Notes under the pieces: generated by a model | The model's input: the letters and a program-made list of their open reading frames with translations, nothing else | The model's database searches: none | Told to the model about the DNA's origin: nothing | Part shown: in pieces, positions 21,673 through 30,253 of the stretch | How the letters are laid out: each line of letters starts with the position of its first letter | Numbering within the stretch: the first letter of the stretch is position 1 | Source of the DNA: Vicinamibacteria bacterium | GTDB lineage: Bacteria > Acidobacteriota > Vicinamibacteria > Fen-336 > JAGNNV01 | Length of the DNA stretch: 40,897 nucleotides | Assembly: GCA_039932395.1 (NCBI GenBank) | Contig: JBDTQB010000003.1 | Coordinates: 1-40,897 of the forward strand | Reading direction: 5' to 3' | Made by a program: the position numbers and the translations under genes

Positions 21673-23049
21673 CTAGCCCTCGTTCAGATCGGCCTCGGGC
21701 GGCTTGTCGGGCGTGTCTTGACCCATCTCCCTCTGAATGCGCTCGCGGACCCGTTCGTAGAACGACTTGTGGTCGACCAGATGGCCGACGGCGTAAGCGC
21801 TCATCGCCGCGATCATCATGGGAAAGAGCGCCGACCGCCGGTCGGTCATTTCCAGGACCAGTACGAACGACGTAAACGGGGTGCGGGTGACGCCGGTGAG
21901 AAACGCGACCATGCCAAGCACGATCAAAAGGCGTGGCTCTATGGGCGCGAAGGCAGGAGCCAAGGCGGACGCGATGGCCGCACCGGATGCGAGAGCGGGC
22001 GCGAAGATGCCTCCAGCACCTCCCACCGCGAAGGAGAGGAACGATCCCGCAAGCCGGCCGATCACGGGGCCCGTTCCATCTGGGGACGGGTCGTCAAACA
22101 GTCGGGATTCGATGAGGCTACGTCCGGAGCCGAGGGTCGCGCTCCCGGTCATGGAGACAAGAATCGCGAACAGCAGGCCCGCCCCGAGAGCGAACATGGC
22201 CTGACGTCGCGCGCCCAGGAGACGTCCGCGAAATTGAACGACGGAGAAGAGGCCTCGCGCCCAGAGCGCTCCGATGAGCCCGCACGCCCCGCCGAGCAGC
22301 GCGCACCAGGGGAGATCGTGACTTGACCAGACGCCTACGCGCGGGAAGCCCAGGTAGAGGTACGGGCCGAGAATCGCCTGCGCCACCAGGCCGGCGACCA
22401 GCACCGCGTGCAGCGCGCCCGACCGGAACGACGCGATGTGGGTTCGCGCCAGTTCCTCGATGGCGTACACGATGCCACCAAGCGGCGTGTTGAAAGCGGC
22501 GGCGAGGCCGGCGGCTCCGCCCGCGAGCAGCATCGACGACATGGGCACGCGCGGCCAGAACTTCGGAAGTCGTGACTGCACGGCGCGGAACACGGCACCC
22601 GAGATCTGCAGCGTCGGTCCTTCGCGGCCGATCGCGGCGCCGCCCGCGATCGCGACGCACGAACTCAGGATTTTGACCACCGCGACCCGGGTTCCCAGCA
22701 GCCGGTTCACCATGGCAGAGCCAGCGCCCGGCGAGGCCGCGGCCATGAGCTGGGGGATTCCGCTCCCCGCGGCCTCGGGCGAAAAGCGCGTGACCAGCGC
22801 CCACGAAGCGAAGAACGCGAGGGGCGACACGATGAACAAAACCCACGTGTTGTGGCCGACGGCGGAGCGATACCCCTCTTCGAGAATGGCGAAGGCGCGC
22901 GCATAGGCGACGGCGATCAGACCGGTCAGCGCGCCCGCGAGCCAGAACGGCAGAACCTGCAACGTGGATTTTCTGACGCGTGGCGACGCGATCAGATCGG
23001 GCAGTCGTCTCGGAGAGGAACGGGGAGGGGGGATGGTTCTGTCGTTCAC
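21673..23049 (-). CDS. clcA: CLC-family chloride/H+ antiporter (no CBS domains)
   Basis: GSGIP, GREGPT (gating Glu), AAAFNTPLGG, YAIEE (proton Glu), GGIFAP, LEMT and C-terminal SFY. Confidence 0.92.
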   Translation of the reverse strand: MNDRTIPPPRSSPRRLPDLIASPRVRKSTLQVLPFWLAGALTGLIAVAYARAFAILEEGYRSAVGHNTWVLFIVSPLAFFASWALVTRFSPEAAGSGIPQLMAAASPGAGSAMVNRLLGTRVAVVKILSSCVAIAGGAAIGREGPTLQISGAVFRAVQSRLPKFWPRVPMSSMLLAGGAAGLAAAFNTPLGGIVYAIEELARTHIASFRSGALHAVLVAGLVAQAILGPYLYLGFPRVGVWSSHDLPWCALLGGACGLIGALWARGLFSVVQFRGRLLGARRQAMFALGAGLLFAILVSMTGSATLGSGRSLIESRLFDDPSPDGTGPVIGRLAGSFLSFAVGGAGGIFAPALASGAAIASALAPAFAPIEPRLLIVLGMVAFLTGVTRTPFTSFVLVLEMTDRRSALFPMMIAAMSAYAVGHLVDHKSFYERVRERIQREMGQDTPDKPPEADLNEG

Positions 23050-23256
23050 CCTTCAGAGTCCCTCGGACCACGGCGGCGACGCAGCGAGAGCCGCGTGGGT
23101 CCCCGCACCAAGACAGCACCGCGCGCGCGCCCCGCCGGCATCAAGCCGCGCCGAAACCTGGGCGGCGGCGAGACGTCTAAGATCAGTGAGGCGCATAGGC
23201 ACCATGATATCGAAAATCAGTTGGAGTACAAAGTAATAGTGGTTTAGCCTGTCAGC

Positions 23257-25512
23257 GTGAGACAGCCGATCAAGTTCCTGGTGGTCCTGGTCGCGGGCCT
23301 GGGCCTGCTGACCTGGGGCGCCTTCCTGGTCATGCAGGAAACCACCCGTGGCTGGGTGGAACGTGACCTTGGGTTGCGCGCGCGTCTTGCCGCGAACGGC
23401 GCCTCGTCGGCCCTTGCCGCGGGCTTTCGTTCGGCGAAGCCCGCCGACCTGCGCGCGGTTCTCCTCAGTGTGGTGCGCGACGAACGCGTCCTTGGTGTCT
23501 CCGCGTGCACCCCGGAGGGCAAGCTGGCGGCCACGGCGGGGGTGGCGCCCGCCAAGTATGGCTGTGCCGAAGTGGCCGCTTTCATTTTTCCTCCGGGCTT
23601 GCCCGCTCAGGCGGAACCGCTTGAGTGGACCCACGTCACGACTCTTCCAGGTGGCCGCGCGCACCTGAGCGGACTGCCCGTGATGGATGAAGGCGGCGTT
23701 CTCGGCTTCGTCATTCTGGTTCAGGACATGGGCTTCGCAGAGCGACGCGAAGCCCAGAGCCGTAACTTTCTGCTTGTTGCCTATTTCCTGCTCGCGATGT
23801 GCGCCTCCCTCGTCACCATCGTGGCGGTCCGTCTGTCCTGGCGCGGTTGGACCCGTCAGCTTCAGAGGGTGTTGAAGGGTGAGAAAGAAAGCGACGCTTT
23901 CCGCCCCCTGCTGCGCGACGTGCGTGAGCTGGTGGACGACATCATGACCGAGCGCGACGCCGATGGCGAGAGCGGCGCCTGGACCGCCGAGCGCCTCAAG
24001 GGAACGTTGCGGCGAAATCTGCACGGGGAAAAGATCGTGGTGGTTTCGAACCGCGAGCCCTATATTCATGACTACGCGCCCGACGGATCCATTCACGTCC
24101 AGCATCCGGCGAGCGGTCTGGTCACGGCGCTCGAGCCGGTGATGCGCGCGTGTTCGGGGGTCTGGATCGCGCACGGCAGTGGTGCTGCGGATCGGGATGT
24201 TGTGGACGCGCACGATCGGGTGCTGGTGCCGCCGGGCGAGGACATCTACTCCATTCGTCGCGTGTGGCTGTCGCCTGAAGAAGAGAAGGGCTACTACTAC
24301 GGATTCTCCAACGAGGGTCTTTGGCCTCTCTGTCACGTGGCCCACAATCGGCCGCTGTTCCGCAGCTCTGACTGGAACTTCTACAAGACGGTCAACCAGA
24401 AGTTCGCGGCCGCCGTCTGCGCCGAGGCCGAGATCGAGGATCCGATCATCCTCATTCAGGACTATCACCTGGCGCTCGCGCCGCGCATGATTCGTCAGAA
24501 GCTTCCGCGCGCCACCGTGATCGGGTTCTGGCACATTCCCTGGCCGAACGCGGAGCGTTTCGGCATCTGCCCCTGGCGGGAAGAACTACTGGACGGCATG
24601 CTCGGGGCGAGCATCCTCGGCTTCCATACGCAGGCGCACTGCAACAACTTCCTGGACTCCGTCGACCGGTATCTCGAATCGCGGATCGATCGTGAACGCC
24701 AGGCCGTGGTTCAGCAGGGGCGCAGTACGCAGGTGCGCGCCTATCCCATCTCCCTTGAGTGGCCGGTACGCTGGCTCAACGGCCTGCCCCCCGCGCCCGA
24801 GTGCCGGAACAGCGTGCTTCGTGATCTCGATCTTCCTGCCAACAGCCTGATTGGTGTGGGTGTTGATCGCCTGGACTACACGAAGGGAATCGAAGAGAGG
24901 CTGCTCGCGGTGGAGCGCCTTTTAGAGTTGCGGCCAGAGTTTCTTGGACGGTTTGTTTTCATTCAGCTCGCCGCGCCCAGTCGCACCGCCATCGGCCGCT
25001 ACCGCGATCTGAGCGACAGCGTGGCCGCCATCGCGGCCCAGGTCAACGAGCGCTTCGGGACCGACTCCTATAAGCCGATCATCCTGAAGCGCGCCCATCA
25101 CGAGCCCCCCGATGTGTTTCGCTACCTGCGTGCGGCGGATGTTTGTTACGTGAGCAGCCTCGACGACGGGATGAATCTTGTGGCCAAGGAGTTCGTTGCC
25201 GCGCGCGATGACGAGCGCGGCGTGCTCGTGCTCAGTCAGTTCACCGGGGCCGCGCGTGAGTTGACCGAGGCGCTGGTCGTCAATCCCTATGACCTCGATG
25301 AATCCGCGGGTGCCATGGCGGCCGCCCTCACCATGCCCCTCGATGAACAACGGGCCCGACTCCGCTCGATGCGGGCCTTCGTCGCCGAGTTCAATATCTA
25401 CCGCTGGGCAGGGCGCATGCTGCGCGACGCCGCGAGATTGCGCCGCCGCGACCGTCTGACCGGGCGCCTCAGCGATGGGTTTACCCCTAGGCTGCCGGGA
25501 GCTGAGTTGTGA
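23257..25512 (+). CDS. otsA: Trehalose-6-phosphate synthase (GT20) with an N-terminal two-TM extracytoplasmic domain
   Basis: The GT20 domain starts at about residue 260 with VVVSNREP, ASGLV, YYYGFSNEGLWPLCH, QDYHL, HIPWP, VDRLDYTKG, APSR and DGMNLVAKEFV. It is preceded by two hydrophobic helices (FLVVLVAGLGLLTWGAFLVM; FLLVAYFLLAMCASLVTIVAV). Confidence 0.93.
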   Translation: MRQPIKFLVVLVAGLGLLTWGAFLVMQETTRGWVERDLGLRARLAANGASSALAAGFRSAKPADLRAVLLSVVRDERVLGVSACTPEGKLAATAGVAPAKYGCAEVAAFIFPPGLPAQAEPLEWTHVTTLPGGRAHLSGLPVMDEGGVLGFVILVQDMGFAERREAQSRNFLLVAYFLLAMCASLVTIVAVRLSWRGWTRQLQRVLKGEKESDAFRPLLRDVRELVDDIMTERDADGESGAWTAERLKGTLRRNLHGEKIVVVSNREPYIHDYAPDGSIHVQHPASGLVTALEPVMRACSGVWIAHGSGAADRDVVDAHDRVLVPPGEDIYSIRRVWLSPEEEKGYYYGFSNEGLWPLCHVAHNRPLFRSSDWNFYKTVNQKFAAAVCAEAEIEDPIILIQDYHLALAPRMIRQKLPRATVIGFWHIPWPNAERFGICPWREELLDGMLGASILGFHTQAHCNNFLDSVDRYLESRIDRERQAVVQQGRSTQVRAYPISLEWPVRWLNGLPPAPECRNSVLRDLDLPANSLIGVGVDRLDYTKGIEERLLAVERLLELRPEFLGRFVFIQLAAPSRTAIGRYRDLSDSVAAIAAQVNERFGTDSYKPIILKRAHHEPPDVFRYLRAADVCYVSSLDDGMNLVAKEFVAARDDERGVLVLSQFTGAARELTEALVVNPYDLDESAGAMAAALTMPLDEQRARLRSMRAFVAEFNIYRWAGRMLRDAARLRRRDRLTGRLSDGFTPRLPGAEL

Positions 25513-26297
25513 AGAACATCCTGGCCGCGGAGCAACGAAAGCTTCTGGAACCGTTCGCCTGGTCCGAAACACTGCTCGCGTTCGACTTCGACGGCACGCT
25601 CGCCCCCATTGTCGAGCATCCCGAGGCGGCGGCCATGCGTCCGACCACGCGGAAGCTCCTGACCCGCGTCGCGAACCTTTACCCATGCATCGTCATCTCC
25701 GGCCGCGCCCTCGCCGACGTTTCGAAACGGGTTGAAGGAGTCGCGTTGCGCGCGGTGGTGGGCAACCACGGGGTCGAGCCCTGGCGGGCGACCAGGCGCA
25801 TCCATCAGCGCGTGCTGGCGTGGCGGCCGATCTTTGAACGGGCGCTGGCCGAAGAACCGGGCGTCGAGATCGAAGACAAGATGTACTCCCTCGCCATTCA
25901 TTTCCGAAAGTCGCGCAAGAAAAAGCGCGTGCGCGCTCTCGTCGAACTGGCCTCGGCGGAGCTTGAGTCAGCGCGTCTGGTGGGCGGCATTGAAGTGGTG
26001 AACATCGTTCCCTCCGACGCGCCCCACAAGGGCATGGCGCTCGAACGGGAGCGGGCCCGCCTCCACTGTGACACCGCGATTTACGTGGGCGACGATGTCA
26101 CGGACGAAGACGTCTTCGCTCTGGATCAGCCCGGGCGTCTTTTGAGCGTGCGCGTGGGAAGAAAGCTTCGATCGGCGGCGGATGTCTATCTGCAGAGCCA
26201 GATCGACATCGACGCCTTCCTGCGCGCTCTGGTGCAACTTCGTGAAGGCCGTGTGACGACCGCGATCCGTCCGGCGCGAAGCGGGCTGGTCGCTTGA
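25509..26297 (+). CDS. otsB: Trehalose-6-phosphate phosphatase (HAD)
   Basis: FDFDGTLAPI, ISGR, GNHGVE, IEDK, AIHFR, HKG and YVGDDVTDEDVF. The GTG start overlaps the otsA stop. Confidence 0.95.
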   Translation: MKNILAAEQRKLLEPFAWSETLLAFDFDGTLAPIVEHPEAAAMRPTTRKLLTRVANLYPCIVISGRALADVSKRVEGVALRAVVGNHGVEPWRATRRIHQRVLAWRPIFERALAEEPGVEIEDKMYSLAIHFRKSRKKKRVRALVELASAELESARLVGGIEVVNIVPSDAPHKGMALERERARLHCDTAIYVGDDVTDEDVFALDQPGRLLSVRVGRKLRSAADVYLQSQIDIDAFLRALVQLREGRVTTAIRPARSGLVA

Positions 26298-26734
26298 TGC
26301 CCGATCCACCGATCGAGCTCGGGGCCGAGCTTGAGTTTCTAAGCCGACTGTGGGCGCTCGATCATGCGCTCCAGAAGCGGTCGAAGAAGATGCTCGCCAC
26401 GCTGGGCGTCACTGGCCCGCAGCGCCTCGCTCTTCGGCTCATCGGTCGCTTCCCCGGGCTGACCGCGGGGCGCCTTGCTCGCTTGCTTCACCTTCACCCG
26501 AGCACGGTCACGGGCGTGATGCAGCGCCTGGCGGCGAGAGGTTTGATTGTGCGTCGGACCGACGGGCCCGATCGCCGCCGTCTGCTCCTGCAGATCACCC
26601 CGAGCGGTGCCGCTTTGCTGGCGGACAAGTCCGGCACGGTTGAAGAAGCGGTGTATGAGTCGTTGGGATCGCTCACGCACGCGCAGACCTCCGCCCTGTT
26701 CAATGCGCTCGATCTGTTAGCCCGTCGCCTGTAA
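26297..26734 (+). CDS. MarR family transcriptional regulator
   Basis: LGVTGPQ, wHTH LTAGRLARLLHLHPSTVTGVMQRLAARGLIVR, DRR and ITPSG. The ATG overlaps the otsB stop (TGATG). Confidence 0.92.
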   Translation: MPDPPIELGAELEFLSRLWALDHALQKRSKKMLATLGVTGPQRLALRLIGRFPGLTAGRLARLLHLHPSTVTGVMQRLAARGLIVRRTDGPDRRRLLLQITPSGAALLADKSGTVEEAVYESLGSLTHAQTSALFNALDLLARRL

Positions 26735-26752
26735 CATGCCCGTTGTGACGAG

Positions 26753-27388
26753 TTAGTCCGCTCCCGCGGCCCGCCGCGCGCGCGCCCGCCTTCCCGCGCG
26801 GAAGAGCAGCGCGCCGCCCACCACGAAGATGACGACGCCAACGGTTCCAAGCACGCCGGTCACCCGCCCCACAGTGGCGCGCACATCGTCGTAGGCGAGT
26901 CCGAGGGCCGAGCCCGCGATGGTCAGCGCGACGTACCAGAGCAAAGAAGCGAGGGCCGCGGGCAGCAAGGTCCTGAGCGGGGAGAGACCGTTGATCGCGG
27001 CAAAGGGGAGAACGCCCGCGCGAAGACCCGGCAGGAACCGGCTGATGAAGATGCCGAGCGCGCCGTACCGCTCGATCTCGCGTCGCACCACCGGCTGGAT
27101 TTCCGCCGGCAGCAGCGAGCAAAACAGCGGTGATTCCAGCACCGCGCGTCCCTTGGTTCTCACCCAAAAGTAGATCGCGGTGGCGGACGCCTGATTCGCG
27201 AGGAAGCAAAGAAGTCCCACCATGACCGGGGTGGAATGCCCGCTGCGCACCGACCAGAACGCGCCCAGGGCCGCGGCGACGTCGGCGGGCACGGGCGGGA
27301 AAATGTTTTCGAGCGCTGACAACAGCATCAGGATCAGGATCACCGTGAGCGGATCCTGGGCCAGGATGAATTCGAGAAAGGCGTCCAT
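26753..27388 (-). CDS. DedA family membrane protein
   Basis: LENIFPPVPAD and RYGALGIFISRFLPGLR, with several TMs. Confidence 0.9.
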   Translation of the reverse strand: MDAFLEFILAQDPLTVILILMLLSALENIFPPVPADVAAALGAFWSVRSGHSTPVMVGLLCFLANQASATAIYFWVRTKGRAVLESPLFCSLLPAEIQPVVRREIERYGALGIFISRFLPGLRAGVLPFAAINGLSPLRTLLPAALASLLWYVALTIAGSALGLAYDDVRATVGRVTGVLGTVGVVIFVVGGALLFRAGRRARARRAAGAD

Positions 27389-27406: not shown

Positions 27407-30253
27407 TCAGCTCTTCAGTCCCAGGGCACGATAGACAAGGTGGGCGGCTGAGGCGTAGCTCAGCTTCGTGGCGCGCGTCATGCCGATCTCGCAGGTGCGG
27501 CAGGTTGAGTACGCGGTCTCGCTGCCGGTCATCAAACCACGGACGTCTTCGGCTTCCGCCCGTGTCGCACCTTCCGTGATCTCCGGCTGGACGAAGCCCT
27601 GGTTGCCGGCGAAGCCGCAACAGGCGGCCCGCAGCGGGATCACCGGATCTTCCGAGTGAGCCGCCGCGACCGCCTTGAGATCCTCCACCGCACCGATTTT
27701 CAAGAGGGAACACGTCGGATGAAGAATGGCGCGGCCTTTGAGAATGCCCTTCGGCGCGTCGGGCCGGGACATCACCTCGCGCCGCCAATACTGGACGAAA
27801 TCGAGCACGCGGATACCGGTCTGCCCATATCCGGCGAACTGAAGGGCGCAGGGTGACGCGTCGGTGACCACCACAAGTTCGCCCCCGCGCGTGGCGTCAC
27901 TCAGAGCGGCCTGCGCTGCGCTCATCGAACGCTCGGACGCGTTGACGTGCGACTTGCTCGAGAAGGCGAGGCCGCAGCACAACCCGTCGATATTGTCTGG
28001 AAGGGTGACGCGGCATCCGGCGGCTTCCAGGGAGCGCAGTGTGGCTTCCATGGTGGAGAGTTCGCTCTCGCCGGGCAAGACGCCCACGATGCGCGAAACA
28101 CAGCTTGGGAAGTAGACGACCTCGTGAACGCCGGTTCCCATCGGTTTCGGCGGCGGCGGCGCGGGGAGAGGCAGCGGCGTCCTCGAGTCGATGTGTGGGA
28201 CGAGTGTTGGCGCCAGCGCGTGGAGAAGCGACGCTCCGGCCGCCATCACGCCGCGTGACAAAGCGTTTCCACTTGATGCGGAAGCGCCGAGCGAAAGCCC
28301 CATGCGTGCCGCCTTCGCGGTTGTCGCGAAGTTTCTGGATGCGAAGGCCGCGACACCGCGGCCAAGAATCGACGACTCGGCCTGATCCAGCTCTTTCATC
28401 AAAATGCCCGTGTCGATCTTCACGGGGCAGGCGGTGACGCACATGGAATCACGCACGCAACTGCCGCGCGCCATCGTGGCGTAGTCGCGGGCCAGATCGT
28501 CGGGCATGGTTTCGCCGCGCCGATCGATCTCGCGAATTTCGCGCAGCAGGATGATCCGCTGGCGGGGGGACAAGGTGGTTGAGCGCGTTGGACAGACCGG
28601 CTCACAGAAGCCGCACTCAATGCACCGGTCCGCGGTCGCGCTGATTTCGGTGAAGGGTTTGAGGTTCCTGATGTGCTCGCGGTGATCGTCGCTCAGCAGA
28701 ACGCCGGGGTTGAGAATGCCGTAGGGATCAAACAGCGCCTTGATCTCACGCATGACGGCGTACGCCGAAGCGCCCCACTCGCGCTCCACATACGGCGCCA
28801 TGTTGCGACCGGTCCCATGCTCGGCCTTGAGTGCTCCGTCGTACTTGCCGACCACCAGCTCGGCGACCGCGTCCATGAAGGCGGAGTAGTTCGCGACATT
28901 CGCTTCGCCCCGAAAATCCTGAGGAGCAATGAAGTGGAGGTTGCCGTCGCGCGCATGGCCAAAAACCACCGCGTTGCGGACGTTGAACTGAGCGAAGAGT
29001 GCATGGAGATCGGTGATCGCCTCAGCCAGCCGCTGCCGGGGGAAGGCAACGTCCTCATTGAGGATGGCGGTTCCCGAACCGCGGCGCGCGCCAATCATGG
29101 GGAGAAGGCCCTTGCGCAACTTCCATTTGAGCGCGCGCTGCGTGGGATCGGAAGAGAAGCCGGTGGAGAACGTGCCGTCGAAGCGCGCGATGACGGCAAG
29201 CGCTCGTGCGACGCCCTTGCCGAGTGCGATGTCGTCGTCTTCCTGAAACTCGATGAGGAGTGCGGCGGAGGACTCTGTGATCGCGATGGGATGCGGCAGA
29301 TCGGCCGCCATCGACAGCAGCGACGCACTGTCCATGATCTCGAGTGCCGCCGCACCCGCGTCGGCCAGGGGATCGACCGCGCGTCCGGCTTCGCTCAGGG
29401 CATTGAAATAGACGAGTGCGGTGGCGCGCTTCTTCGGATCGGGCACCGTGTCCAGAACAACGTCGGCGAGAAAGCCCAGCGTGCCCTCGGAGCCAACGAT
29501 CAGATGGGTCAGGATGTCGGCGGGACGCTGATGATCGACGAAGGCGTGGAGCGAATAGCCCATGGTGTTCTTCGTGGCGAATTTCTGCCGGATGCGTCCC
29601 GCGAGTGTCTTGTCGGCCAGAACCTTTGTCCGCAGCTCCGCGAGGCCCGCATGGAGACGCGGATGTTTGTTCTTCAGACGGACGTCCACCTCGTCGCGCG
29701 CGTCGCCGTGCGTGTCGATCACCGAACCATCGGCCAGAACGAACGTCGCGCCGCGAATCGTCTGATAGCTGTTCTGGGTAACGCCGCAACACATGCCCGA
29801 AGCGTTGTTCGCCACGATGCCGCCGATCATCGCGGCTTCGATGGACGCCGGATCGGGACCGATGCGACGGTTCAGCGGCGAGAGAGCTCGGTTTAAAAGC
29901 CCGCCGATCACGCCCGGCTGCGCCCAGACGCGCGCGCCGCCTTCTTCGATGCGGAAACGTCCCCAGTCCAGTGACAGGTCGACCAGAATGCCCGAGCCGA
30001 CCGCCTGTCCGGACAACGACGTGCCCGCGGCGCGGTAGGTGATGGGTTGCTGAAGCGCGCGCGCCACCTCAAGAATCGAGCGCACATCCGATATGTCACG
30101 CGGTCGAACCGCGACCTCGGGAACGATGCGGTACATCGAGGCGTCCGACGCCCGGGCGAGACGATCGATGGGGCGGGCCAGAATCCTCGCCGCAGGCAAG
30201 ACCGCCTGAAGCCGTTTCAGAAGTTCAGGATTCGGAGGTGCGAGGCGAGTCAA
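27407..30253 (-). CDS. FAD- and Fe-S-binding oxidoreductase, NAD-independent D-lactate dehydrogenase type
   Basis: TYRAAGTSLSGQA, GPDPAS, NNASGMCCG, GSEGTLG, GHARDGNLH, KAEHGTGRNM, ferredoxin motif CIECGFCEPVCP, and two CCG domains. Confidence 0.9.
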   Translation of the reverse strand: MTRLAPPNPELLKRLQAVLPAARILARPIDRLARASDASMYRIVPEVAVRPRDISDVRSILEVARALQQPITYRAAGTSLSGQAVGSGILVDLSLDWGRFRIEEGGARVWAQPGVIGGLLNRALSPLNRRIGPDPASIEAAMIGGIVANNASGMCCGVTQNSYQTIRGATFVLADGSVIDTHGDARDEVDVRLKNKHPRLHAGLAELRTKVLADKTLAGRIRQKFATKNTMGYSLHAFVDHQRPADILTHLIVGSEGTLGFLADVVLDTVPDPKKRATALVYFNALSEAGRAVDPLADAGAAALEIMDSASLLSMAADLPHPIAITESSAALLIEFQEDDDIALGKGVARALAVIARFDGTFSTGFSSDPTQRALKWKLRKGLLPMIGARRGSGTAILNEDVAFPRQRLAEAITDLHALFAQFNVRNAVVFGHARDGNLHFIAPQDFRGEANVANYSAFMDAVAELVVGKYDGALKAEHGTGRNMAPYVEREWGASAYAVMREIKALFDPYGILNPGVLLSDDHREHIRNLKPFTEISATADRCIECGFCEPVCPTRSTTLSPRQRIILLREIREIDRRGETMPDDLARDYATMARGSCVRDSMCVTACPVKIDTGILMKELDQAESSILGRGVAAFASRNFATTAKAARMGLSLGASASSGNALSRGVMAAGASLLHALAPTLVPHIDSRTPLPLPAPPPPKPMGTGVHEVVYFPSCVSRIVGVLPGESELSTMEATLRSLEAAGCRVTLPDNIDGLCCGLAFSSKSHVNASERSMSAAQAALSDATRGGELVVVTDASPCALQFAGYGQTGIRVLDFVQYWRREVMSRPDAPKGILKGRAILHPTCSLLKIGAVEDLKAVAAAHSEDPVIPLRAACCGFAGNQGFVQPEITEGATRAEAEDVRGLMTGSETAYSTCRTCEIGMTRATKLSYASAAHLVYRALGLKS

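Follow-up and report, generated by a model that had tools for sequence, protein, structure and literature searches.

The window analysed here, 40,897 nucleotides of contig JBDTQB010000003.1 from a Vicinamibacteria bacterium, carries an otsA-like gene whose product joins a trehalose-6-phosphate synthase of glycosyltransferase family 20 (GT20) to an N-terminal module built like a membrane receptor (Table 1). The module consists of a first transmembrane helix (TM1), a domain predicted to lie outside the cytoplasm and to have the PDC/Cache-like fold of sensor domains, a second transmembrane helix (TM2) and a helical linker that leads into the enzyme. The protein is laid out like a sensor kinase in which OtsA has taken the place of the kinase, and the HisKA and HATPase_c families are absent from the protein in the Pfam scan. 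A sequence-only reading of the same DNA had described about 255 extra N-terminal residues, comprising TM1, a soluble domain of some 140 aa, TM2 and a helical linker ahead of an intact GT20 domain; the Pfam match, the hydropathy profile and the structure model bear this description out, with an extension of 258 residues. The reading frame is open for just three codons 5' of the GTG start (a 754-aa open frame), and the gene is the only GT20 match in the window's genome, which is 88.8% complete.

Table 1. Features of the otsA-like gene, its product and its surroundings; residues are those of the otsA-like protein and positions those of the window.
Feature	Residues	Position	Strand	Description or basis
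CLC-type chloride channel gene		21673..23049	-	Divergent, upstream of the otsA-like gene; Pfam scan
Intergenic region, CLC gene to otsA-like gene		23050..23256	.	ORF (open reading frame) map
otsA-like gene		23257..25512	+	751 aa, GTG start, TGA stop; TM1, PDC-like outside domain, TM2, helical linker, GT20
TM1	7-27	23275..23337	+	Kyte-Doolittle hydropathy peak
PDC/Cache-like outside domain (predicted)	28-169	23338..23763	+	AlphaFold2 model and structure searches
Cys84 codon (SAC)	84	23506..23508	+	End of strand 1; codon checked; 97% conserved
Cys103 codon (YGC)	103	23563..23565	+	Start of helix after strand 2; codon checked
TM2	170-192	23764..23832	+	Kyte-Doolittle hydropathy peak
Cytoplasmic linker (predicted)	193-258	23833..24030	+	Helix to 207, 8-residue connector, helix 216-237, helix 244-254
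GT20 (OtsA) catalytic domain	259-725	24031..25431	+	Pfam Glyco_transf_20, E 1.3e-115, profile positions 2-471 of 473
otsB, trehalose-6-phosphate phosphatase		25509..26297	+	Pfam Trehalose_PPase, E 2.7e-23
MarR-family regulator gene		26294..26734	+	Pfam MarR_2, E 4.1e-14; TTG start overlaps otsB stop (TTGA)
VTT/DedA-type membrane protein gene		26753-27388	-	Convergent, downstream of the operon; Pfam scan

The enzyme part is assigned as a trehalose-6-phosphate synthase from its sequence. Glyco_transf_20 is the sole Pfam family on the protein (387.3 bits, cut-off 32.5), and the best solved relatives are the OtsA of M. thermoresistibile (5jij, E 1.9e-81 over residues 260-729) and fungal Tps1. Aligned to solved OtsA, the domain has the motifs SNREP (R266), QDYH (D402), H426, DRLDYTKG (R538 and K543), APSR (R576) and DGMNLVAKE (D637 and E645), and these eight residues are invariant in 54 relatives; we take them to be the equivalents of the substrate-binding residues R9, D130, H154, R262, K267, R300, D361 and E369 of E. 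coli OtsA. Residues 284-288 (24106-24120) read PASGL where solved OtsA and Tps1 read GGL, and this variant is likewise invariant in the 54 relatives. Among the NCBIfam models the OtsA models rank first, well above GgpS.

The membrane segments were called with Kyte-Doolittle windows of 19 residues scoring above 1.4, and a weaker peak at 137-155 corresponds to a buried strand of the outside domain. In a full-length model, which was built from a 54-sequence alignment and has a mean predicted local distance difference test score (pLDDT) of 78.9, TM1 lies within a helix spanning residues 2-48 and TM2 within a continuous helix from 159 to 207. The flanking charges (K+R/D+E) are 2/0 in residues 1-6, 3/3 in 28-42, 3/3 in 155-169 and 4/0 in 193-207, a distribution that fits a topology with the N-terminus inside, the loop outside and the C-terminus inside. 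A cytoplasmic C-terminus is also required because GT20 uses cytoplasmic UDP-glucose. On the combined grounds of hydropathy and positive-inside charges, residues 28-169 are predicted to sit outside the cytoplasm, between the two membrane helices.

This domain was modelled with AlphaFold2 from an alignment of 59 diverse sequences, and the model of residues 25-172 reached a mean pLDDT of 93.6 and a predicted template-modelling score (pTM) of 0.86. In the model a long helix and two short ones are followed by a pair of strands, one more helix, three further strands and a last helix that continues into TM2, an order that fits the PDC layout of a long N-terminal helix, a five-stranded antiparallel sheet with helices and a C-terminal helix to TM2. 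The segment GVLGFVILVQD, which the sequence-only reading had named as the end of the domain, is located in the model as the strand at 147-157. VIA-align, a structure search over 48,161 solved chains that is independent of Foldseek, returned the extracellular domain of WalK as the best match (4ywz_A, Z 12.8, root-mean-square deviation (rmsd) 3.2, 132 residues aligned), followed by PctD (Z 11.8), KinD (Z 10.9), the periplasmic domain of the LapD ortholog CdgS9 (Z 10.9) and CitA (Z 10.7 and 10.6), with DctB, CusS, DcuS (Z 8.7) and PhoQ further down. Nineteen of the 20 best rows (Z 12.8-9.4) come from the extracytoplasmic parts of kinases, chemoreceptors and similar receptors, and the remaining one is a Bacillus domain of unknown function. 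Foldseek returned 13 matches at E <= 0.001 (1e-5 to 1e-3), of which those listed are the sensor domains of WalK/YycG, CitA and KinD, and a feature search of the ESM Atlas pointed to clusters of sCache_3_2 and of HAMP with Cache_WalK (scores 0.92-0.95), which serve as leads only. We conclude that the middle domain, as modelled, adopts the PDC/Cache-like fold known from extracytoplasmic sensor domains, the kind of match for which the sequence-only reading had proposed to search.

At the sequence level the module stands apart. Residues 1-258 match no family significantly in Pfam, NCBIfam or PDB sequences; the Cache, PAS and CHASE families appear below threshold only, each in 1-2 of 12 family members (Pfam, E <= 10), with E values of 0.15 for dCache_3, 0.087 for sCache_3_2 and 0.072 for CHASE4, and a profile search of PDB sequences with the module gave a best E of 0.18. 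The least conserved part is the helix at 103-110 together with the loop to strand 3, where mean column identity is 0.41 and 0.31, respectively, and where insertions and deletions occur. In PDC sensors this region usually provides the lid of the ligand pocket.

The outside domain contains two cysteines, Cys84 and Cys103, each present in 97-98% of relatives. When 337 sequences were aligned to the module profile, 308 had residues at both positions; 294 of these have both cysteines and eight have neither, while five retain the first only and one the second only. Four of the six single-cysteine sequences are frame-shifted, and the other two (P0124 and P0144) look genuine. Joint retention and joint loss of this kind fit a disulfide, which would itself fit a location outside the cytoplasm, so that the bond suggested in the sequence-only reading for these two residues is probably real: the pair at least evolves as a disulfide pair would. 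A homologue of VKOR, which acts in periplasmic disulfide formation, is encoded in the window's genome, where DsbB was not found (88.8% completeness applies here too).

The linker is the part of the module that meets the enzyme. Between its helices 216-237 and 244-254 lies a conserved loop with G240 and W242, and helix 244-254 leads into the first GT20 strand at residue 260. The conserved linker residues are R192, W198, F215, P217, D221, R223, L225, W242, R246, L247, L251, G257 and E258. The succession of helix, connector and helix after TM2, with both helices in the predicted dimer interface and a pLDDT below 50 in the monomer, recalls a HAMP domain at most in layout, and the eight-residue connector compares with what we take to be about 14 residues in a canonical HAMP domain. 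As a separate observation on HAMP domains in this genome, a frame of 2180 aa outside the window (G000:C6:24554-27466, plus strand) has 11 tandem HAMP matches at a spacing of about 275 bases and encodes a poly-HAMP array protein.

A homodimer was predicted from two copies of residues 1-263 with a 12-row alignment. The prediction scored 0.48, with 0.00 for the best of three controls, and so passes a mark that is reached by 20 of 30 proteins solved as same-chain pairs and by one of 23 solved as single chains, a calibration that is rough since the prediction started from a custom alignment. At least 88% of contacts are the same from run to run, and the partner has a pLDDT of at least 77. The interface is symmetric and parallel; it runs through TM1, the first outside helix (37-55), residues 67-78, TM2 and residues 193-206 and 217-225, with predicted contacts such as 187-187, 194-194 and 198-198. 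Residues in the interface that are at least 85% conserved include F7, L11, L15, D37, R41, L44, D75, R77, L179, A183, T187, W198, P217, D221, V222 and L225, among which F7, L11 and L15 of TM1 are conserved in 87-97% of sequences. The model supports binding of two chains to each other, and a predicted parallel homodimer as in sensor kinases, with a PDC/Cache-like domain between two membrane helices and conserved helices after them, agrees with the receptor-like layout first proposed from the sequence.

Comparison with relatives indicates that the module is translated and under constraint. In nine orthologous loci, from metagenome-assembled genomes of Vicinamibacteria and Acidobacteriota, identity over the module is 70-89%, and a GTG or ATG start codon stands at the same aligned position in all nine. 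The ratio of non-synonymous to synonymous substitution (dN/dS, Nei-Gojobori, against the nine orthologs) takes values of 0.11-0.23 in the outside domain, 0.03-0.10 in the linker and 0.05-0.09 in GT20, all of them rough because synonymous sites are close to saturation or past it (dS 0.8-2). Purifying selection acts on the N-terminal codons, and the module is strongly conserved, which was one of the points on which the sequence-only reading had staked its proposal. Another was an internal start that would yield a soluble enzyme, and this candidate is ruled out: no conserved internal methionine was found, Met230 occurring in 27% of 114 relatives and methionine in at most 14% at every other column from 195 to 261.

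The module was traced well beyond these close relatives. A phmmer search with residues 1-258 against 1.84 billion proteins gave 575 clusters (at 50% identity) with E <= 0.001, 270 at 1e-10 and 47 at 1e-30. Inspection covered the best 150 of the 575 representatives, most of them gene fragments, and weaker matches with other outputs are possible. Among the 39 representatives of at least 300 aa, 19 continue into GT20, 18 have no match, one has a weak sub-threshold match to a domain of unknown function and one matches a pantoate transferase. The tails that lack a GT20 match read as truncated or frame-shifted copies, in most of which GT20 can still be seen to begin (NREPY..HPASGLVTALEP). The pantoate case (P0184, 313 aa), in which module and linker run into the C-terminus of a ketopantoate hydroxymethyltransferase (Pfam E 3.3e-39), is the sole non-GT20 continuation seen and is probably an assembly chimera. 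When residues 1-258 were scored against 8000 candidates, 163 proteins of 413-1315 aa matched at E <= 0.001, and of the 120 listed 119 have PF00982 only and one (P0081) has no Pfam entry; a profile search of longer proteins (507-2000 aa) gave 183 matches, and all 120 of those listed again have PF00982 only. Within the window's genome the module profile matches the otsA-like gene alone, even at E <= 1. To judge from these searches, the module occurs only in front of GT20 among the matches inspected, and the survey of architectures for which the sequence-only reading had called turned up no other output behind it.

The source labels of the matches are Vicinamibacteria, Terracidiphilus, Candidatus Binatia, Myxococcota and Acidobacteriota, taxon labels that rest on few named records. 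In a sample of 401 Acidobacteriota genomes, which includes the window's own (G000), the module profile matches 34 at E <= 0.001. According to module and GT20 searches and the fetched loci, the module abuts GT20 in the same frame of 747-876 aa in 29 genomes, with a possible thirtieth (G359, a 761-aa frame with a GT20 match); weak module matches in G001, G050, G224 and G284 do not adjoin GT20. GT20 itself is present in 146 of the 401 genomes, a tally that includes two flagged as unpublished (G049 and G152). The fused form would accordingly be found in roughly one in five of the OtsA-bearing Acidobacteriota genomes sampled, a figure to be read as a minimum, since several more GT20 matches occupy frames of 760-785 aa beyond the reach of the profile. 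Some genomes have several copies, G010 having two whole ones and a 237-aa piece, and G045 two. In databases these proteins are named simply trehalose-6-phosphate synthase, and no description of a membrane-anchored or sensor-fused OtsA was found among the papers listed by full-text literature searches, a coverage outside which subscription journals lie.

The otsA-like gene heads a compact operon. The GTG start of otsB overlaps the otsA stop by four bases (GTGA), and its product passes the NCBIfam equivalog for trehalose-6-phosphate phosphatase (TIGR00685, 95.9 bits, cut-off 68.05). otsB lies directly downstream of otsA in all nine close loci and adjoins it in 10 of 14 distant ones (nine downstream, one upstream); in the other four it was not found by tblastn at E <= 1e-5. 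The MarR gene follows otsB in eight of the nine close loci, the ninth locus ending before that point, and lies near otsA in two of the 14 distant loci. Its product may autoregulate the otsA-otsB-marR operon, in which case transcriptional and post-translational control could coexist. Pattern scans of positions 22950-27000 found no sigma-70-like promoter site, and two terminator-like sites where 3.0 were expected, an outcome that is uninformative; no Rfam family, and hence no riboswitch upstream of otsA, reached its gathering score anywhere in the window. TreS and TreY homologues above their equivalog cut-offs are encoded on another contig of the genome, so that other trehalose routes exist, and OtsA-OtsB is, by these sequence matches, the only route found in the genome that makes trehalose from sugar nucleotides.

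The flanks of the operon are less constant. The CLC gene recurs upstream in three of the nine close loci and the VTT gene downstream in five, and the two neighbours raise a possible link to ion or envelope stress. Further along the window, an ORF of 948 aa (27407-30253, minus strand) appears by eye, from the translation alone, to combine an FAD-linked oxidase with an iron-sulfur, cysteine-rich domain, and was likened to a D-lactate or glycolate dehydrogenase-like fusion. Outside the window, the same genome has a cluster of large alpha-glucan and trehalose genes (G000:C13:7755-24369, minus strand) in which TreS lies in a frame of 1125 aa and TreY in one of 1707 aa, beside three GH13-like frames; these long frames suggest fused enzymes.

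We read the otsA-like protein, with somewhat more belief than doubt, as a homodimeric inner-membrane trehalose-6-phosphate synthase of the receptor type whose activity is gated by a signal. In the mechanism that we infer, each chain would cross the membrane twice and hold outside it a PDC/Cache-like sensor-type domain, probably braced by the Cys84-Cys103 disulfide, and a change in this domain or in the membrane would, as in sensor kinases, set TM2 and the linker helices in motion. Candidate triggers include an envelope, osmotic or drying-related cue and the redox state of the cysteine pair. By way of helix 244-254 the movement would reach the N-lobe of the GT-B fold, or alter how the two GT20 domains pair, and so change activity; trehalose-6-phosphate and then, via the translationally coupled OtsB, trehalose would be made on demand with neither a kinase nor a transcription step. 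A conserved interface and conserved membrane-proximal charges, set against a variable pocket, suggest either that ligands differ by lineage or that the cue is physical or redox in nature. A more specific form of the proposal, in which a PDC domain with a redox- or drying-sensitive cysteine pair exerts allosteric, transmembrane control over a compatible-solute synthase in the same polypeptide, is put forward tentatively and with more doubt than belief.

Several observations weigh against the gated-receptor interpretation. Residues 197-230 have a pLDDT below 50 in the full-length monomer model, and the comparison with HAMP domains that the sequence-only reading had proposed for the linker came out negative in three tests. 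No HAMP match was found in 12 family members at E <= 10; the window's genome has 26 HAMP matches at E <= 1e-5, none of them in the otsA-like gene; and hhalign of the linker (residues 188-245, a 114-sequence alignment) against these 26 domains gave a probability of 0.3% over one aligned column, three control segments giving 0.2-1.5%. A canonical HAMP linker is therefore ruled out at the sequence level, by Pfam, by the genome profile scan and by hhalign alike. The variability of the pocket-lid region argues against one conserved small-molecule ligand, and the passing dimer prediction may reflect likeness to solved sensor-kinase dimers. Five distant members (L030, L031, L032, L035 and L036) keep the whole architecture with neither cysteine, and the disulfide is therefore not essential to the general mechanism. 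The enzyme, finally, falls short of the NCBIfam OtsA equivalog TIGR02400 (400.1 against 564.85).

A serious rival, although one that we judge unlikely, is that the N-terminal module just anchors and dimerises the enzyme, near a protected bilayer or a transporter, and that the outside domain is a non-sensing spacer. Such a role would sit well with a pocket region that is the most variable part of the domain (mean identity 0.31-0.41, with indels), with the position of the best-conserved outside residues, at the dimer interface or close to the membrane, and with the lack of a match to any sequence family with a known ligand. For anchoring, however, a single membrane helix would suffice, whereas a 140-residue domain and a 66-residue linker have been kept across at least 575 clusters, the linker under a dN/dS of 0.03-0.10 against 0.05-0.09 for the enzyme; moreover, the invariant charges D37, R41, D75, R77, D157 and R164, together with the conserved helix 244-254 next to the enzyme, have the look of a route for signal transmission. 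The cysteines invite a different proposal, a redox switch like the CSS-domain phosphodiesterase PdeC in which the state of the Cys84-Cys103 disulfide sets activity, and this we hold to be improbable. Both cysteines are retained in 294 of 308 sequences and both are missing in eight, a VKOR homologue is at hand in the genome, and PdeC has the same layout and a disulfide that lowers its activity (PMC5897775). A disulfide with a structural role alone would explain the co-conserved pair just as well, though, and the five cysteine-free distant members share the architecture, while the Pfam scan at E <= 10 returned no CSS-motif match.

The direction of signalling and the chemistry of the product can also be read differently. 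The GT20 domain might have a product other than trehalose-6-phosphate, such as glucosylglycerol phosphate, an idea that we find very improbable. It draws on the equivalog scores, no NCBIfam cut-off being reached by the domain scored alone (the bifunctional form PRK14501 gives 448.8 against 634 and GgpS 284.9 against 569, besides the OtsA value above), and on the GGL motif, which reads ASGL throughout the family. Because of these missed cut-offs the product assignment rests on rank order, motifs and the coupled otsB. Against another product, GgpS scores far lower than the OtsA models, every one of the best solved relatives is an OtsA or a Tps1, and the overlapping downstream gene passes the trehalose-phosphatase cut-off and is adjacent in nine of nine close and 10 of 14 distant loci. 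Least probable of all, to the point that we give it hardly any weight, is inside-out signalling as in LapD, whereby the substrate or product state of GT20 would alter the outside domain so that a periplasmic partner is bound or released. The periplasmic output domain of CdgS9 does figure among the best fold matches (4u64_A, Z 10.9, rmsd 3.0, 111 residues aligned), but many other PDC-fold matches reach a comparable Z, and no conserved gene for a periplasmic partner is seen, only otsB and, in close relatives, MarR recurring.

Trehalose is among the main compounds that protect soil bacteria from drying, salt and cold, and the known control of OtsA is mostly transcriptional. If the signal-gated reading is true, the otsA-like protein would offer a faster, post-translational route, and would be a rare case of a sensor module that drives a metabolic glycosyltransferase rather than a signalling enzyme. 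It would amount to transmembrane control of bulk metabolism without a kinase, a second messenger or a transcription factor, and would provide soil Acidobacteriota with an immediate trehalose response to cycles of wetting and drying. The family is common enough to bear on the drought survival of abundant, hard-to-culture soil bacteria, and an output enzyme that is easily assayed would make the protein a convenient system for the study of transmembrane signalling by PDC domains.

The otsA-like protein can be set beside several known systems. With the soluble OtsA and Tps1 enzymes (M. thermoresistibile OtsA 5jij, fungal Tps1 6jbi and 5hut, E. coli OtsA 1gz5 and 1uqu) it shares a full-length GT20 domain, the motif residues and an otsB partner; the solved enzymes, however, are soluble and start about 10 residues before the first strand, whereas the otsA-like protein has 258 extra residues. 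With sensor kinases and chemoreceptors such as WalK (4ywz), CitA (2j80 and 1p0z), DcuS (1ojg), KinD (4jgo) and PhoQ (1yax) it shares the succession of TM1, PDC domain, TM2 and helices, at 8-15% sequence identity in the structural alignments to solved PDC sensors, but it lacks HisKA/HATPase or the signalling domain of methyl-accepting chemotaxis proteins and has a metabolic glycosyltransferase as its output. Receptor-type nucleotide and diguanylate cyclases likewise combine an outside sensor, membrane helices and a dimeric cytoplasmic enzyme in one polypeptide, but they make second messengers, where the otsA-like protein would make the precursor of a bulk protective sugar. GgpS of Synechocystis is a soluble GT20 relative that is directly activated by salt and controlled by ionic strength inside the cell; it resembles the otsA-like protein as a compatible-solute GT20 enzyme with stress-responsive activity and differs from it in having no membrane module. 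A further parallel in layout is that of the CSS-domain c-di-GMP phosphodiesterases PdeC and PdeB of E. coli, and PdeC consists of TM1, a periplasmic domain with two conserved cysteines whose disulfide lowers activity, TM2 and an EAL enzyme (PMC5897775). They share with the otsA-like protein the cysteine pair and a cytoplasmic enzyme that is fused directly and works, or in the otsA-like protein would work, as a dimer (PMC5897775), but their output is EAL rather than GT20, and neither the CSS-motif nor the EAL family appears in Pfam scans of the otsA-like protein. Overall, the otsA-like protein joins two known kinds of protein, the receptor-type enzyme and OtsA.

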